Source of the DNA: Bacteroidota bacterium
GTDB taxonomy: Bacteria > Bacteroidota > Ignavibacteria > UBA10030 > BY39
DNA: 64,000 nt
NCBI GenBank assembly: GCA_030682385.1
Contig: JAUXOG010000067.1
Span: 8,790 to 72,789 of the forward strand
Direction: 5' to 3'
Position 1 is the stretch's first letter; each line of letters starts with the position of its first letter. The notes under the pieces are model-generated. The model was not told the origin of the DNA. It saw only the letters and a program-made list of their open reading frames with translations, and searched no databases. Position numbers and translations under genes: made by a program. Of this stretch, positions 2,484 through 62,591 are shown piece after piece.

Positions 2484-3818
2484 TTAATATTCTAGAAATA
2501 CACCATTTTTTATAACACGATATACATGATTTTCGCCGAAGTGGTAAGGAAGAAATTTATAATTCGGAATATCCAAAATAACTACATCGCCCCGTTTGCC
2601 TATATCTATACTGCCAATTTCATTCGAGAGATTTAAAGCCGCCGCCGCATTAATTGTGGATGCAGTTAAAACTTCCTCCGGACTCATTTTCATGTGAGTG
2701 CAGGCGATAGTCATCATCAGGGGCATCGAGTACGACATACAGGAGCCGGGATTGAAATCGGTGGCAATTGCAACAACCACTCCATTCTCAATCAGTTTCC
2801 GTGCGGGGGCGTATTGATGATTTAGAAAGAAAGAAACTCCGGGCAAAAGTACTGCTGCAACATTTCCTTGTTTTAAGGAGTTGATACCATCATCTGTAAT
2901 ATGTTCCAGGTGGTCAGCAGAAACAGCGCCGATTCTTCCTGCTAATTCTGCACCGCCGAATGAAGTTAGTTCTTCGGCATGAATTTTTGGAAGCAGCCCG
3001 TGTTGCTTTCCGAGTGTTAAAATTTTTTCAGATGTTTCAACATCGAAGTAGCCTTTTTCACAGAACACATCGCAAAAGTCGGCAAGTTTGCGTTGCCCTA
3101 TGTAAGGTATCATTTGATCGCATATCAAACTAACATACCCGTCCGGATTATTTTTGAATTCGGTCGGGAAGGCGTGGGCACCAATGAAAGTAGATACGAT
3201 CGATATAATTTCTTCCTGCCGCAGTTCGCGGATAACATCTAACATTTTGATTTCTGAATCGAAATCCAACCCATAACCGCTTTTAATTTCTACCGTGGTT
3301 GTTCCCTGTTTCAGCATTGAAGTTAAATAACGGCGGGCTTTTTTCTTTAATTCTTTTTTTGATGCTTCGCGTGTTATACGGACGGAACTTAAAATGCCGC
3401 CCCCTTTTTCAGCAATCTCCTGATAAGTTTCACCGGCTGAGCGCATACCGAATTCGTCCTCGCGGCTGCCGCCAAAAACAAGATGAGTGTGTGAATCGAC
3501 AAAACCGGGCATCACGACTTTATCAGAACAATCGTATTCTATAAAATTGTTAGATAAGTTTTGGGGTAAATCCTCCATCTTTCCGAAGTGCGAAATAAGT
3601 CCGTTTTCGATTACCACGACGGCGTTCTCGACGATGCCCAAATTTCGCATTTCATCACCAACACGAAAGCGTCTATCTTTAGGAGATGTTAATTCCGACG
3701 AGAGAGTAACAAGCTGTTTTATGTTCGTTAATTTGAGATTCACATTGCAAAGATAAGAAAAGGGGGCTGATTTTGCAAAGTTTTTTTTATCGGTTGCAAG
3801 AAAAACCAACGCTGGCAC
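2484..3818 (-). CDS. hutI: Imidazolonepropionase
   Basis: PGFVDSHTHLVFGGSRE metal-binding motif with an amidohydrolase fold. The N-terminus is uncertain: the track start may be TTG/GTG, and the true start is probably downstream of 3818. Confidence 0.85.
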   Translation of the reverse strand: MPALVFLATDKKNFAKSAPFSYLCNVNLKLTNIKQLVTLSSELTSPKDRRFRVGDEMRNLGIVENAVVVIENGLISHFGKMEDLPQNLSNNFIEYDCSDKVVMPGFVDSHTHLVFGGSREDEFGMRSAGETYQEIAEKGGGILSSVRITREASKKELKKKARRYLTSMLKQGTTTVEIKSGYGLDFDSEIKMLDVIRELRQEEIISIVSTFIGAHAFPTEFKNNPDGYVSLICDQMIPYIGQRKLADFCDVFCEKGYFDVETSEKILTLGKQHGLLPKIHAEELTSFGGAELAGRIGAVSADHLEHITDDGINSLKQGNVAAVLLPGVSFFLNHQYAPARKLIENGVVVAIATDFNPGSCMSYSMPLMMTIACTHMKMSPEEVLTASTINAAAALNLSNEIGSIDIGKRGDVVILDIPNYKFLPYHFGENHVYRVIKNGVFLEY

Positions 3819-3956
3819 ATACCACGAATAAAAAATTCAGAAGAACTCGTTCTTGTGGTGTCCAGAAAAATCCCGCCGGTCAATTTCCGACATTAGAAAT
3901 AATTGCAAAAGTAATTCTGAAGCTGCCCTAACTAAAACAAAGGGAGTTCAGAAACA

Positions 3957-7494: not shown

Positions 7495-9054
7495 ATGAAA
7501 AAACTACAACTTGACGGAAACAACCTAACAATCACCAATGTCGCGGCTGCTGTTAATAATTTTAACAATATAAAAATAGATTTTACCAAAGATGCGGCGA
7601 GGAATATTAAGGCATCACGTACGATGGTTGACAATTGGGTGCGAAACGGAGATATTATTTACGGAGTTACTACAGGCTTTGGCGAATTCAGCAACGTTAC
7701 AATTAGCACCGAAGACATCGAGCAACTTCAGGAAAATTTAATTATGAGCCACTCAGCCGGTGTGGGCGAACCGCTGCCGCTCGAAGTTGTACGTGCGATG
7801 ATTATTTTGCGACTGAATGCACTTGCAAAAGGTTACTCAGGAATTCGTTATGAAACTTTGGATTTTGTTAGAAAAGTTTTCAATGCCGGCATCACTCCTG
7901 TAATTCCGTCGAAAGGATCTGTCGGATCCAGCGGCGACCTCGTTCAACTTTCGCATTTAGTTTTGACTATGATGGGAAAAGGAAAAGTTTTGTATGAAGA
8001 TATTTTAATGGACTCATCGATTGCATTAAAAAAGATTGGACTTGAACCGCTGCGTCTAAGTGCGAAGGAAGGTTTAGCTCTCATCAACGGAACACAACTG
8101 ATGACTGGATACGGAGCGTTAATAATGTTCGCAGCCGCTCAACTTTGTAAGATTGCAGATATTGCTGCAGCGATGAGCTTTGAAGCATTGAAAGGAACCG
8201 ATACAGCATTCGACGAGCGGATACATAATCTGAGACCGCACGAGGGACAAAAAATATCGGCAGCAAATTTACGCAAACTTATTGCAGGCAGCGAGATTCG
8301 TGAATCGCACCGTAAAGACGATCCTCGCGTTCAAGATGCTTACTCACTACGATGTATCCCGCAGGTTCACGGCGCTTCGCGCGATGCAATTAATTACGCA
8401 TACAATGTAATTGAAACTGAGATAAACTCAGTTACCGACAACCCGATAATTTTTCCAAAAGAAAAAATACATTTAGAAGGGGGCAACTTCCACGGTCAAC
8501 CGCTTGCTCTTGCACTCGACTTTACCGGAATTGCACTTGCCGAGTTTGCCAATATTTCGGAACGCCGAATCGAGAGAATGTTAAACGGAAATTTAAGCGG
8601 ACTTCCACGCTTTTTAACAACACGCGGCGGACTAAACTCGGGCTTGATGATAGCTCAATATACTGCAGCATCGCTCGTCTCTGAAAACAAAGTTCTTGCT
8701 CACCCGGCTTCGGTCGATTCGATTCCCACTTCAGCAAGTCAGGAAGACCACAACAGTATGGGGTCGATTAGCGCCGCAAAAGCATGGCAGATTCTGAAAA
8801 ATGTGCAAGCGGTTTTGGCTATCGAACTTATGGTCGCTGCACAAGCTGTCGATTTTGCCTCAATAAATGTAACGACTGCGAAAGTTATGAAGCTTGGTAA
8901 AGGAAGCGCTGCGGCTTACAAATTAATTCGAAAACATATTTCGCATCTAACCGGTGATAGAGTTTTACACGACGATATTTCGAAATCGTTGAACTTAATT
9001 ACAACGGGTGCTGTTATCAGTGAAACTGAAAAAGCAATTGGAAGAATTGAGTAA
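7495..9054 (+). CDS. hutH: Histidine ammonia-lyase (MIO-dependent aromatic amino acid lyase family)
   Basis: GSVGSSGDLVQLSH is a MIO-forming motif, an SSG variant of the usual ASG. About 520 aa. Start placed at MKKLQLDG (7495), not the track start 7438. Confidence 0.85.
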   Translation: MKKLQLDGNNLTITNVAAAVNNFNNIKIDFTKDAARNIKASRTMVDNWVRNGDIIYGVTTGFGEFSNVTISTEDIEQLQENLIMSHSAGVGEPLPLEVVRAMIILRLNALAKGYSGIRYETLDFVRKVFNAGITPVIPSKGSVGSSGDLVQLSHLVLTMMGKGKVLYEDILMDSSIALKKIGLEPLRLSAKEGLALINGTQLMTGYGALIMFAAAQLCKIADIAAAMSFEALKGTDTAFDERIHNLRPHEGQKISAANLRKLIAGSEIRESHRKDDPRVQDAYSLRCIPQVHGASRDAINYAYNVIETEINSVTDNPIIFPKEKIHLEGGNFHGQPLALALDFTGIALAEFANISERRIERMLNGNLSGLPRFLTTRGGLNSGLMIAQYTAASLVSENKVLAHPASVDSIPTSASQEDHNSMGSISAAKAWQILKNVQAVLAIELMVAAQAVDFASINVTTAKVMKLGKGSAAAYKLIRKHISHLTGDRVLHDDISKSLNLITTGAVISETEKAIGRIE

Positions 9055-16076: not shown

Positions 16077-16085
16077 AATAATGAA

Positions 16086-16101
16086 TCCGTTAGCTAACGG
16101 A
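16086..16101. promoter_or_regulatory. Perfect 16-bp palindrome TCCGTTAGCTAACGGA between sdhD and sdhA
   Basis: Direct reading. The same palindrome recurs at 24584-24599, with variants at 18722, 26837 and 42630. Candidate operator or RNA hairpin. Confidence 0.5.
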
Positions 16102-16137
16102 TGAACATTGAATTTAGAATAAAGAAGGATTTGTTAA

Positions 16138-18687: not shown

Positions 18688-18737
18688 GCTTTTTTGTTTA
18701 ACTCCTTCCAATTTTCTATTAATCCGTTAGCTAAAGG
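18688..18737. promoter_or_regulatory. Conserved 33-nt motif (GGCTTTTTTGTTTAACTCCTTCCAATTTTCTAT) followed by a TCCGTTAGCTAAAGGA near-palindrome
   Basis: 30/33 identical to 24607-24640 upstream of hemE. Contains TTTG and, ~20 nt later, TAtt, resembling the FCB-group -33/-7 promoter layout. Confidence 0.4.
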
Positions 18738-19023
18738 ATTTCTTTTTTGGCTCATCGAAAGGTTTGTTTACATTTCAAGATTCCTTTTTAGAACGTAGAA
18801 CGTTCTTTACTCATTTGACGCTCGAATTATACGATAAAACACATTCCATTCAACCGCACGATTTTACCCCCCCCCATAACAGCTATAACTCCTTATATTT
18901 CAACTGGTTATAAAAGGCAATTTTTTTGGCGAAAAAATAGGATTTTTAAAAAATAAAATATATATTACCAGCAAACAAATAAAAACAATTCGCTCGACTC
19001 TTTGAGCGGAAAGGACTGCGGTT

Positions 19024-24572: not shown

Positions 24573-24616
24573 AGCCGATTCAGTCCGTTAGCTAACGGAT
24601 GGGTCGGCTTTTTTGT
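24573..24616 (+). terminator. Intrinsic terminator whose loop contains the TCCGTTAGCTAACGGA palindrome
   Basis: agccga ... tcggct stem plus tttttt. The palindrome at 24584-24599 sits inside the loop. Confidence 0.6.
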
Positions 24617-24643
24617 TAAATTCCCTCCAATTTTCTATATTTA
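24607..24643 (+). promoter_or_regulatory. Conserved 33-nt motif. Candidate hemE promoter (TTTG, 20-nt spacer, TATATTTA)
   Basis: Near-identical copy of 18688-18720. The TAnnTTTa-like element ends 17 nt upstream of the hemE ATG. Confidence 0.4.
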
Positions 24644-39028: not shown

Positions 39029-39066
39029 AAAGCCGACTCAAATAATAAGGGTCGGCTTTTTTATTA
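39029..39066 (+). terminator. Intrinsic terminator after citrate synthase
   Basis: aagccgac ... gtcggctt stem plus ttttttatt. Confidence 0.75.
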
Positions 39067-39106
39067 CATTTGCACATTTACAAAATTTTTAGTTTCTTAT
39101 TTCGAA

Positions 39107-46512: not shown

Positions 46513-47802
46513 ATGAACACATCAAAGTCAGATACACTATTCGAAAAAGCAAAACAATTAATCCCCGGCGGTGTGAACTCGCCCGTGCGGGCTTTCAAAT
46601 CTGTAGGCACAAATCCTCTATTCATACAAAAAGCAAAGGGTTCCAAACTATGGGATGCCGATGGAAACGAATTCATCGATTACGTTGGCTCGTGGGGACC
46701 GATGCTGCTTGGGCATTCACATCCAAAAATAATTGAAGCAATTAAGAAAACTGCTGAAAACGGAACAAGCTTCGGCGCCCCAACCGAGCTTGAAGTGATG
46801 ATCGCTGAATTGATTACGAAGATAATGCCTTCAATCGAAATGGTTCGAATGGTAAACTCAGGCACAGAAGCAACAATGAGCGCAATCAGGCTTGCACGCG
46901 CATACACGGGTAAAGATAAGATGATCAAATTTGAAGGATGCTACCACGGACACGGCGATTCGTTTCTAATAAAAGCCGGTTCGGGGGCTATGACTTTCGG
47001 AGTCCCTGACAGTCCCGGTATTCCGAAAGGCATTGCCGATTATACTTTGACTGCGCGCTTCAATGATATCGCTTCGGTTGAGGAATTGATTTCGAAAAAC
47101 AAATCAGAGATTGCCGCGTTAATCGTTGAGCCCGTTGTCGGAAACATGGGATGCATTCCGCCGCGAGAAAATTTTCTGAAACAACTGCGGCAGTTATGCA
47201 CACGGGAAAATATAGTTCTGATTTTCGATGAAGTGATGACCGGGTTTCGCATTTCTCTCGGCGGTGCTCAGGAACTTTACAAAATTAAACCAGACATTAC
47301 CACACTTGGCAAAATTATCGGCGGAGGTTTGCCTGTTGGCGCTTACGGCGGCAAAAAAGAAATAATGCAATTGGTTTCACCAAGCGGACCTATGTATCAA
47401 GCCGGAACGCTATCGGGCAATCCGTTAGCTATGGCGGCGGGGTTTGAAATGCTTTCGATTATTTCACAAGATAAATCTGTTTATAAAATTCTTGAGGAAC
47501 GGTCCGCACAATTAGAAAATGGGATGCGGGAGACTCTGCAAAAATTTAGTTTGAATTACAGGATAAACAGAGTCGGTTCTATGTTCACTTTGTTTTTCAC
47601 TGATAAAGAAGTCTTTGATTATGATAGTGCCAAAACATCGGATACTAAAAAGTTCGCTTTATATTTTAATGAGATGTTGATGCAGGGAATATATTTAGCT
47701 CCGTCGCAGTTTGAAGCTGCATTTGTTTCGGCGGCACATTCTACGGAAGATATTGAAAAGACAAATCGAGCGTTTGCTGAAGCGATTAAAAATATAACGT
47801 AG
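46513..47802 (+). CDS. hemL: Glutamate-1-semialdehyde 2,1-aminomutase
   Basis: Class-III aminotransferase with a PLP-lysine region ([17 protein letters not shown]). 429 aa. Confidence 0.9.
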
Positions 47803-48182
47803 AGACGTTCCATGGAACGTCTCCTGTCTTACGCACTGGGACACCCAAAACCAAGAATTGGAGTTTTATAAGATTAATAATTAACATACCGCTCCTACGG
47901 AGCGGGTAATATATTCTTTGATACATAGCTACAGACATACGAGTCCTACGGACTCGATAAATGGTAGTTATGAAACGACTCCAAAGGAGTCGAATGTCTG
48001 TAGTATTTGAAATATAAAATAATACCGACCCCAGCGGGGTCGAATGTTTGTATGTATTTTCCGTCTTACGCATTGGGACACCCGTATCCAAAAGTAAAAT
48101 GCGGTTTTTGGTAATATTTCTAAAGATTTTTCGTTTTTGTTAAAATTGTGCGGAAGTCAGGAGACGTTCCATGGAACGTCTC
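47802..48182. repeat. Copy 1 of a ~340-bp multi-hairpin intergenic element, bounded by two identical 22-bp palindromes (GAGACGTTCCATGGAACGTCTC)
   Basis: The core 47824-48160 is highly similar to 62190-62540. It contains four CGAnTCC-N3-GGAnTCG-type hairpins (ccgctcctacggagcgg, cgagtcctacggactcg, cgactccaaaggagtcg, cgaccccagcggggtcg). It also has two internal direct copies of CGTCTTACGCAYTGGGACACCC. Confidence 0.8.
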
Positions 48183-48258
48183 TACTGCATTTTTTTCCAA
48201 CACAAAAGCCATCCCGAAAATCGAGATGGCTTTTGTATTTAAATAAAATTTAAACTTA

Positions 48259-60957: not shown

Positions 60958-61338
60958 TTATTGGAAATCACCGTTGAACGTATAAGGTCCAAATTTACCA
61001 TCGGCATCCAATTCAACCACGATTGTCCCATATCCAAATTTTGAAGTCGCTGTAAATTCTACAGAATTAGGAGATTCCAGATAAGTATATGTTGCATTCT
61101 CGTTATCTGCAAGATTAGCTGGTATATTTAAATTAAGATACGACCTGCTGCCGCCGCCTAAAGGTTCGGGTTTTAAACGATATCTATACGCATACTGCCC
61201 AAGATTCATCATATCGTTTATGATTGCATCCTTATTTGAGCTAACAGAGGTAGCCGTAAACAAATAAATTCCCACTACAATTGCGATTCCGACAATGATC
61301 ACACCAAGTATGAGCAGCATTAGTTGTTGTTGACCCAT
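60958..61338 (-). CDS. Atypical pilin-like protein (paralogue 1)
   Basis: 126 aa. MGQQQLMLLILGVIIVGIAIVVGI N-terminal helix with no canonical GFTLIE. Paralogous to 61454-61834. Lies directly upstream of pilC-pilB. Confidence 0.5.
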   Translation of the reverse strand: MGQQQLMLLILGVIIVGIAIVVGIYLFTATSVSSNKDAIINDMMNLGQYAYRYRLKPEPLGGGSRSYLNLNIPANLADNENATYTYLESPNSVEFTATSKFGYGTIVVELDADGKFGPYTFNGDFQ

Positions 61339-61453: not shown

Positions 61454-61834
61454 TTATTTGAATTGACCCTCGTATGCCCAATCAGTTAATTTACCTTCTG
61501 GGCCGAGTATGGCTACTACTGTTCCATAATCTAAGTGTGTTGCTGTAATTGTAACTTCATCTGCTTCGCCCACGACAGCTACATATGTAGCATTTTCGGT
61601 AGTTACTAATTTTGTTGGAATGGTATAACCGGTATAGGCACCAGCGCCACCGCCCATCGAGGCAGGACGGATACGATATTGATATGCATTTGCAGCAAGG
61701 TTGTTCATGTCGTTAATAATAGCATCTTTGGCGGATTGAACACTGCCCGCTGAAAACATTGTTATACCGACAGCGATAGCGATACCAACTATGATAACGC
61801 CCAAAATGATTAATAAAAGTTGTTGTTGACCCAT
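61454..61834 (-). CDS. Atypical pilin-like protein (paralogue 2, probably the major subunit)
   Basis: 126 aa. MGQQQLLLIILGVIIVGIAIAVGI. Own promoter candidate upstream and a terminator downstream. Confidence 0.5.
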   Translation of the reverse strand: MGQQQLLLIILGVIIVGIAIAVGITMFSAGSVQSAKDAIINDMNNLAANAYQYRIRPASMGGGAGAYTGYTIPTKLVTTENATYVAVVGEADEVTITATHLDYGTVVAILGPEGKLTDWAYEGQFK

Positions 61835-61945: not shown

Positions 61946-62126
61946 CCGGATAAAAATGTTAGAAATGGGATAAAACAAAGGATATAAGGATATACTTCAG
62001 CCAACTTATTAAAGGGGTAGGTAATAATTACCGAAATGGGTTGCATTTGTTACAAAGTCGGTAAAAATGCCTGAATATCGCTCTCCACTTCCTGTTTTTT
62101 CACTTTGTAATTCTTTATATCCTTCG

Positions 62127-62591
62127 CTCTGCTGGTTGCTGAGCTGTTAAACTGAGCTTGTCGAAGTTTTATCGAAGCTGGTTGCTCCCGTCTTACACAT
62201 AGGGCACCCAAAACCAAGAATTGGAGTTTTATAAGATTAAAAATTAACATTAGTTACAGACATACGAGTCGCCTTTGGCGACCTACGGACTCGATAAATG
62301 GTAGTTATGAAACGACTCCAAAGGAGTCGAATGTCTGTAGTACTTGAAATATAAAATAATACCGACCCCAGCGGCCTGCCCGCCGTCCCTCTTTTCGGGA
62401 CTTTGGTAGGCGGGGGGGCGAATGTTTGTATGTATTTTCCGTCTTACGCACTGGAACACCCGTATCCAAAAATAAAATGCGGTTTTTTGTAATATTTCTA
62501 AAGAATTTTCGTTTTTGTTAAAATTGTGCGGAAATCAGGTCTTTATTCTTATCTCTGCTGGTTGCTGAGCTGTAAACTGAGCTTGTCGAAG
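62127..62591. repeat. Copy 2 of the ~340-bp multi-hairpin element, bounded by 39-40-bp direct repeats (CTCTGCTGGTTGCTGAGCTGT(T)AAACTGAGCTTGTCGAAG)
   Basis: The core 62190-62540 aligns to 47824-48160 with two module swaps. One hairpin module is replaced by attagtta. The cgaccccagcggggtcg hairpin is expanded to a GC-rich hairpin containing GCCTGCCCGCC...GGTAGGCGGGGGGG. Confidence 0.8.

Follow-up and report, generated by a model that had tools for sequence, protein, structure and literature searches.

Genomic context of two copies of a hairpin-rich element

The 64,000-nucleotide stretch of Ignavibacteria DNA analysed here (positions 8,790 to 72,789 of contig JAUXOG010000067.1; referred to throughout as the window) carries two copies of a small hairpin-rich element. 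Copy 1 lies downstream of hemL, and copy 2 separates pyk from the first pilin-like gene in a type IV pilus/type II secretion system (T2SS)-like cluster, where it could affect transcription. An earlier reading of the DNA from its letters alone (hereafter the original prediction) had named these genes: hemL and pyk are confirmed and the cluster contains genes for a secretin, a T2SSE ATPase and T2SSF, but the open reading frames (ORFs) called pilins match no family at the curated cutoff. Each copy of the element is very probably a non-autonomous miniature inverted-repeat transposable element (MITE) of an IS1634-family (IS4-related, DDE) insertion sequence (IS) resident in Ignavibacteria. In place of the 1.5-kb transposase gene stands an array of hairpins that resemble repetitive extragenic palindromic (REP) units.

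The element and its internal hairpins are laid out as follows.

47823–48161, minus strand (on which the parental transposase gene would run): MITE copy 1, 339 bp, delimited by its termini and by collinearity with full-length IS1634-family elements at both ends.
62187–62539, minus strand: MITE copy 2, 353 bp, with terminal repeats at 62187–62200 and 62526–62539 and an internal box at 62440–62461.
47889–47905, unstranded: extra hairpin with a 7-bp stem and 3-nt loop (CCGCTCC-TAC-GGAGCGG), supported by alignment, a scan for terminator-like hairpins and the sequence of a related locus (L004).
47929–48053, unstranded: array of three REP-like units (47929–47956 inverted, 47976–48003 direct and 48026–48053 direct), identified by folding and unit comparison.

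Reading and aligning both regions confirms that the two copies are near-identical where they had been placed, at 94–99% in the shared blocks: 96% over 47839–47887/62202–62250, 99% over 47945–48037/62282–62374 and 94% over 48036–48161/62414–62539. The copies differ by three indels, every one of them a hairpin. A 38-nt hairpin segment is found only in copy 1 and in L004 and is missing from copy 2, and hairpin insertions of 12 nt (around 62271–62282) and 41 nt (nested, around 62375–62415) are found only in copy 2. The small ORFs inside the element match no Pfam family, a sigma-70 promoter scan of both copies was uninformative, and tblastn searches with two transposases (P0124 and P0149) detect no transposase similarity in the 64-kb window below E = 0.3.

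A search for copies in other genomes had been proposed, and such copies were found. Scanning one genome per species with a 21-nt box, GTCTTACGCAYTGGRACACCC, matched four loci, all of them in Ignavibacteria metagenome-assembled genomes (L001–L004). L004 carries an element copy that is 95% identical to the window element and L001 a diverged copy; in L002 and L003 the box forms the end of a longer element. Homologues of the miniature element as a whole number four, of which three share blocks at 94–99% identity and the fourth (L001) has its core inverted, which deprives an alignment over the entire element of meaning.

The element has the ends of an IS1634-family insertion sequence

Copy 1 terminates in CCTGTCTTACGCAC (47823–47836, plus strand) and CCTGACTTCCGCAC (48161–48148, minus strand), which on direct comparison agree at 12 of 14 positions and so form imperfect 14-bp terminal inverted repeats. 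Ends of this type have three matches in the window at two or fewer mismatches, against 0.2 expected by chance, and all three fall at the two copies. The left end of copy 2, CCCGTCTTACAC, is more diverged than the other ends. Both ends of copy 1 can be aligned with those of full-length elements.

47823–47877, minus strand: IS right end, made up of the terminal repeat, the box GGGTGTCCCAGTGCGTAAGACAGG (last transposase codons, G-C-P-S-A-stop) and a decayed C-terminal coding remnant; its last 28 nt, in transposase orientation, match the L003 right end at 28/28 and that of the intact IS in L007 at 27/28.
48062–48161, minus strand: IS left end of about 100 bp, made up of the terminal repeat (48148–48161), an untranslated leader and the internal box (48062–48083); collinear with L003, L007, L008 and L014.

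The collinearity at the left end extends over positions 1–88 of the MITE, with 65–70 identities in 91–93 alignment columns against the four elements. About 78 nt into this end, full-length elements carry a GGGTGTCCCA box just 5' of the transposase ATG, and the MITE has the box at an equal offset. At the opposite end, the transposase frame closes with FGCPSA-stop inside the right-end box in L005, L006 and L007, and the box GGGTGTCCCAGTGCGTAAG encodes the final G-C-P-S-A residues and stop codon of the L003-type transposase. IS ends, decayed transposase codons included, account for approximately 150 of the 339 bp of copy 1.

The family assignment comes from the longer relatives. The L003 element (1145–2563) has decayed reading frames, the C-terminal fragment of which matches the NCBIfam model NF033559, 'IS1634 family transposase', with E = 7.8e-21. 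A frame-corrected (stitched) transposase of 511 aa from L006 matches the full NF033559 profile with 358.8 bits (E = 5.4e-107; the cutoff of the model is 100 bits). A search with this protein retrieves thousands of relatives, including intact 511–512-aa Ignavibacteria proteins; P0141, P0149 and P0155 are labelled 'IS1634 family transposase' by their sources and P0124 matches the Pfam family DDE_Tnp_1. Elements of 1647–1650 bp with matching ends and intact 511–512-aa transposases are present in L007, L008, L014, L016–L019 and L042–L045, and the IS copy in L039 is 1637 bp long. The full-length elements start CCTGACTTC(C/A)GCAC and finish GTGCGTAAGTC(A/G)GG. Because the window element has matching ends and there is no transposase in the window, we interpret it as a MITE of an IS1634-family insertion sequence. 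A full-length partner would have the ends ...GTAAGACAGG and CCTGACTTCCGCAC.

L003 itself (1145–2563) keeps both ends together with N- and C-terminal transposase fragments, and small ORFs fill its middle. One of these starts with a motif, IYLDTSVINFL, that by eye is PIN-domain-like.

The internal box bears on how the MITE arose. In full-length elements GGGTGTCCCAG is present twice in the same orientation, once at the stop codon and once just 5' of the start codon, and the internal box of the MITE is lengthened to GGGTGTCCCAATGCGTAAGACGG and so amounts to a complete right end. On this evidence 48062–48161 (100 bp) resembles a deletion derivative that retains little more than a left end and a right end, to which the hairpin array and a second right end (47823–47877) would have been attached. 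In L001 (6177–6537) a left-end-like tail follows both boxes, as if two directly oriented mini-elements flank the array.

Copy 1 is inserted in the hemL terminator

The window contains exactly two occurrences of a 22-bp palindrome, GAGACGTTCCATGGAACGTCTC, at 47802–47823 and 48161–48182, and 100 dinucleotide shuffles gave no match. The original prediction had copy 1 bounded by two identical 22-bp palindromes; these do stand at its edges, but the innermost base of each is part of the terminal repeat, which leaves a true duplication of 20 bp.

47803–47822, unstranded: left target-site duplication (20 bp) of copy 1, AGACGTTCCATGGAACGTCT, which forms the interior of the palindromic hemL terminator; 20/20 identical to 48162–48181 and abutting the terminus.
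48162–48181, unstranded: right 20-bp target-site duplication of copy 1; 20/20 identical to the left copy and abutting the terminus.
48160–48198, plus strand: intrinsic-terminator-like hairpin of hemL that keeps its T-run, found by a terminator scan; a matching hairpin and T-run stand directly 3' of hemL in the empty site.

The search for an unoccupied site that had been proposed was successful. Contigs of a related strain (L021–L025) carry a hemL that is 92% identical, and the neighbouring genes on both sides match the window. In two of them (L021 and L024) just one AGACGTTTCATGAAACGTCT, the terminator palindrome, stands after the hemL stop codon, with CTACTGCATTATTTTTTTT next. The intergenic distance is 100 bp in the empty site and 456 bp in the window, a difference of 356 bp that is close to 339 + 20. 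Copy 1 is thus an insertion into the hemL terminator palindrome that duplicated 20 bp. The target is a perfect 26-bp palindrome, TAGAGACGTTCCATGGAACGTCTCTA, followed by a T-run, and the two joins are placed symmetrically inside it, 3 bp from either end. As a result of the insertion the hemL terminator hairpin is now doubled, with the left duplicate (47801–47824) lacking a T-run and only the right-hand hairpin keeping one.

Copy 2 is flanked by a different direct repeat.

62112–62166, unstranded: left decayed direct repeat of copy 2, 55 nt, with 20 nt (62167–62186) between it and the element.
62540–62591, unstranded: right decayed direct repeat of copy 2, 52 nt, abutting the element terminus.

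A direct repeat of about 40 bp had been predicted here; the repeat is present but is longer, at 52–55 bp, and imperfect, with three gaps and two mismatches. Its local alignment score is 79, compared with a mean of 16.4 and a maximum of 27 in shuffles. The two copies are independent insertions in unrelated contexts, each with its own flanking duplication, and neither is an ordinary terminator, as had been proposed.

Related elements make long duplications of variable length

Direct repeats flank related insertions across the clade.

L007, full-length element: 404 bp, perfect, at 1492–1895 and 3543–3946.
L014, full-length element: 223 bp, 125/125 visible before the contig end.
L016, full-length element: 100 bp, 87/87 visible.
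L009 compared with L008, full-length element: 236 bp implied, 30/30 visible.
L001, MITE: 84 bp, 82/84 identical.
Window copy 1, MITE: 20 bp, 20/20 identical.
Window copy 2, MITE: approximately 52–55 bp, decayed.

Full-length elements thus have duplications of 100, 223, 236 and 404 bp at four of seven insertion sites. The 404-bp duplication in L007 copies part of a 4HBT thioesterase gene, leaving a truncated copy on one side of the element and a complete copy on the other.

In five of six insertions (L001, L007, L008/L009, L016 and window copy 1) the host flanks read T-CCTG...CAGG-A, with dashes marking the junctions. The T and A at the junctions may point to a slight preference in target choice, or to a terminal repeat that in truth extends one base further. 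The IS1634 family was defined by De Palmenaer et al. (PMC2266710), and long, variable direct repeats of 8–514 bp are documented for IS1634 and IS1549 (PMC2266710); the titles of the original papers on these two elements agree. The earlier argument that long flanks exclude a classical IS or MITE fails on this point, as such repeats are a known signature of part of the IS1634 family. No mechanistic model for them had been proposed as of the 2008 review (PMC2266710).

A full-length copy at another place in the genome would provide the transposase in trans. This enzyme would bind both ends of the MITE and join each to one of the target strands, with the two joins 20 to approximately 400 bp apart; repair synthesis over this long stagger would then yield the long direct repeats.

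Several observations count against an IS1634-derived MITE moved in this way. The full-length partner IS is absent from the 64-kb window, and mobilization in trans in this genome would have to draw on a copy elsewhere. The internal right-end box (48062–48083) is longer than in full-length elements, which in a by-eye reconstruction implies a more complex origin for the MITE, probably as a mini-element joined to a second right end. The repeat at copy 2 is decayed and its left copy is offset from the element by 20 nt. Flanking duplications are also not universal: around the full-length insertions in L008 (as assembled), L039 and L042 there is none, long or short, over about 2 kb. One flank is common and the other is not in L013/L016 and in L042/L043/L045. 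A plausible but unproven cause of the missing duplications at L008, L039 and L042 is that metagenome contigs were joined chimerically at the repeat or that copies recombined with each other. Finally, most members of the IS1634 family make duplications of 5–6 bp (PMC2266710), and an active member from Geobacillus gave 6 bp (PMC8024623). The Geobacillus result indicates that the long-duplication trait is specific to a clade and not family-wide.

The core is an array of REP-like hairpin units

Every unit in the core has a G+C-rich stem of 7 bp that closes a 3-nt loop, and (A/T)ATGTYTGTA(G/T) comes after it. Units one and two make an inverted doublet that is the source of a predicted three-way junction, in which the minimum free energy fold pairs CTACAGACAT with ATGTCTGTAG. 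A single metagenome scan with the hairpin-unit pattern GGAGTCGAATGTYTGTAGWA identified 12 contigs in which the unit occurs without an IS1634 end, often in arrays or convergent pairs; no further complete MITE copy is present among these 12 contigs. The stems covary between units while the tail stays constant (CGACTCC/GGAGTCG, GCACCCC/GGGGTGC, CAATCCC/GGGATTG, GAACCCC/GGGGTTC and TCGCTCC/GGAGCGA). In L001 (6177–6537) the array of three units runs the opposite way with respect to the IS ends, with an alignment score of 106 when flipped and 41 when not. The middle of the MITE consists of hairpin units and does not derive from the IS, and the hairpins are palindromic DNA modules rather than parts of an RNA architecture tied to one strand. 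They are cargo or nested repeats and not the machinery that makes the duplications.

Members of the unit family, with a 3–4-nt loop and an (A/T)ATGTTTGTAG tail, are found in L027 (3947–3976 and 6280–6420), L029 (528–650) and L038 (208–237 and 2541–2690), with others in L028–L037. The family matches no Rfam model. The start of the transposase gene in L007 (1999–2012) and L008 (near 2001), ATGTTTGTAAG (M-F-V-R), resembles the unit tail ATGTTTGTAG as it occurs at 47993–48003 in the window; the likeness may be chance.

These units allow the MITE interpretation to be extended, tentatively, by a joint proposal that we consider possible but rather doubtful. Its first part is that the hairpin array belongs to an undescribed REP/REPIN-like family (REPINs are REP doublets forming hairpins) with a 7-bp covarying stem, a 3–4-nt loop and ATGTTTGTAG, which would be common in environmental bacterial contigs, would be moved by an enzyme of its own and would lie nested in IS1634 MITEs or be carried along by them. 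Its second part is that the strand-transfer sites in the Ignavibacteria IS1634 clade are set by target DNA structure, with the symmetric joins of copy 1 inside the 26-bp palindrome as the case in point. If the second part holds, the way in which long, variable target duplications arise would be tractable in this clade.

Alternative explanations

The same units could instead be taken to define the element as a whole, as a mosaic of the REP/bacterial interspersed mosaic element (BIME) type that is moved by a REP-associated tyrosine (Y1/HUH) transposase and resembles IS1634 ends only incidentally. The core would suit such a mosaic in being built from short palindromes that share an unvarying tail with GTAG and include an inverted doublet, and the occurrence of units alone in many metagenome contigs fits it equally. 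It is nevertheless very unlikely, because the insertion boundaries are IS1634-type terminal repeats and not hairpin units, full-length IS1634 elements without any hairpin array show equally long duplications, and the unit tail has only chance-level matches in the window outside the two MITE copies. The presence of target duplications is likewise unlike the products of Y1 transposases, which, to our knowledge, make none in either the IS200/IS605 or the RAYT family.

The stability of the predicted fold raises the question of whether the copies belong to a structured non-coding RNA gene family, one of the candidates of the original prediction; they would then be paralogous genes, with the hairpins and three-way junction as a functional fold. 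Compared with shuffles, the element folds with z = -12.7 on the plus strand and -10.2 on the minus strand, values to which the palindromic flanks contribute part, and the stems covary between units (for example, CGACTCC/GGAGTCG compared with CGACCCC/GGGGTCG). This stability is, however, about equal on both strands, as is expected of DNA palindromes. Whole hairpins are gained and lost between copies, the L001 array is inverted as a unit relative to the ends, and an RNA gene would not account for the transposon termini, target duplications and empty site, nor for the roughly 150 of 339 bp that are IS ends with decayed transposase codons. Rfam has no match in the whole window at the gathering threshold and, for the copy 1 region at E values up to 10, only chance-level ones (mir-548, MicF and small nucleolar RNAs). 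We regard an RNA gene family as extremely unlikely.

A site-specific recombination cassette or integrative element, also raised originally, in which the flanking repeats would be recombinase-made attL/attR cores, is barely credible: although long direct repeats around an insert are what site-specific integration leaves, here they are unrelated in sequence and length from site to site (20, approximately 52–55, 84, 100, 223, 236 and 404 bp), they are ordinary host sequence that is single in the empty site and duplicated on insertion, no recombinase gene lies in or beside the element, and the enzyme linked to the full-length relatives is a DDE transposase.

Two further candidates were rejected. 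Pairing of the flanking palindromes as a retron-like or terminator-like stem is ruled out by the flanks of copy 2 and L001, which are non-palindromic direct repeats, and Cas1/casposase-like integration with repeat duplication is ruled out by the IS1634-like transposase fragments inside the longer relatives L003 and L002.

Other features of the window

Two paralogous 126-aa ORFs on the minus strand (60958–61338 and 61454–61834), both starting MGQQQL(L/M)LIILGVIIVGIAI, adjoin the T2SSF, T2SSE and secretin genes. They have a hydrophobic N terminus and a pilin-like look; neither has a Pfam or NCBIfam match past the curated cutoff, and the sole Pfam listing is a sub-threshold MacB_PCD. A tandem array of about 14 copies of an 8-bp unit, CTCCACTA, and its variants occupies 656–772. 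Repeated terminator-like hairpins, ATKAATCCGTTAGCTAACGGAT and, with shared downstream sequence, GGGTCGGCTTTTTTGTT, are located in the intergenic regions at 16081–16102, 18718–18739, 24579–24622 and 39049–39070.

Relation to known systems

A small repeat with long, site-specific flanking duplications looked anomalous, and it resolves to the footprint of a transposon and not to a new class of RNA or mobile element. The suggestion of a new type of miniature mobile element is borne out as far as a miniature mobile element goes, but the ends and subterminal regions are those of the IS1634 family and the type is not new. No description of an IS1634-derived MITE was found in the literature searched, which weakly suggests that the element is new as a member of its kind. 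The insertions add clean natural cases of long, variable IS1634-family duplications, with a matching empty site and a palindrome-symmetric example. Knowledge of the family should also help annotation of Ignavibacteria metagenome-assembled genomes, in which it avoids mis-calling of the copies as non-coding RNA genes or as repeats like those of CRISPR (clustered regularly interspaced short palindromic repeats).

The core units resemble REP, REPIN and BIME sequences in their short G+C-rich palindromes, a conserved GTAG-containing motif, covarying stems and an occurrence as single units, arrays and inverted doublets. They differ in that the inserted unit is bounded by IS1634 ends and not by REP-like units. 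Classical REPs carry GTAG immediately 5' of the palindrome, whereas the GTAG of these units is on the 3' side, about 7 nt from the palindrome. No RAYT gene came to light, although no search aimed at one was made in the window or the related loci.

Classical bacterial MITEs, such as Correia elements and those derived from IS630 or IS5, are also small and non-coding with the terminal inverted repeats of a parent IS, and are likewise intergenic, multi-copy, structure-rich and accompanied by target duplications. Their duplications are short and of a fixed 2–10 bp, in contrast to the 20 to more than 80 bp seen here, the length of which is different at each site.

The closest likeness is to IS1634 of Mycoplasma mycoides subsp. 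mycoides SC and IS1549 of Mycobacterium smegmatis. The partner transposase belongs to the same family, matching NF033559 in full, the terminal inverted repeats are short and imperfect, and the duplications are long and variable from copy to copy (20–404 bp here, compared with 8–514 bp reported; PMC2266710). By contrast with these two elements, the window copies are non-autonomous, 339–353 bp long and without a transposase, and they have a central hairpin-repeat array; the host phylum is Ignavibacteriota; and the right terminus overlaps the transposase stop codon, with the right-end box repeated just 5' of the start codon.

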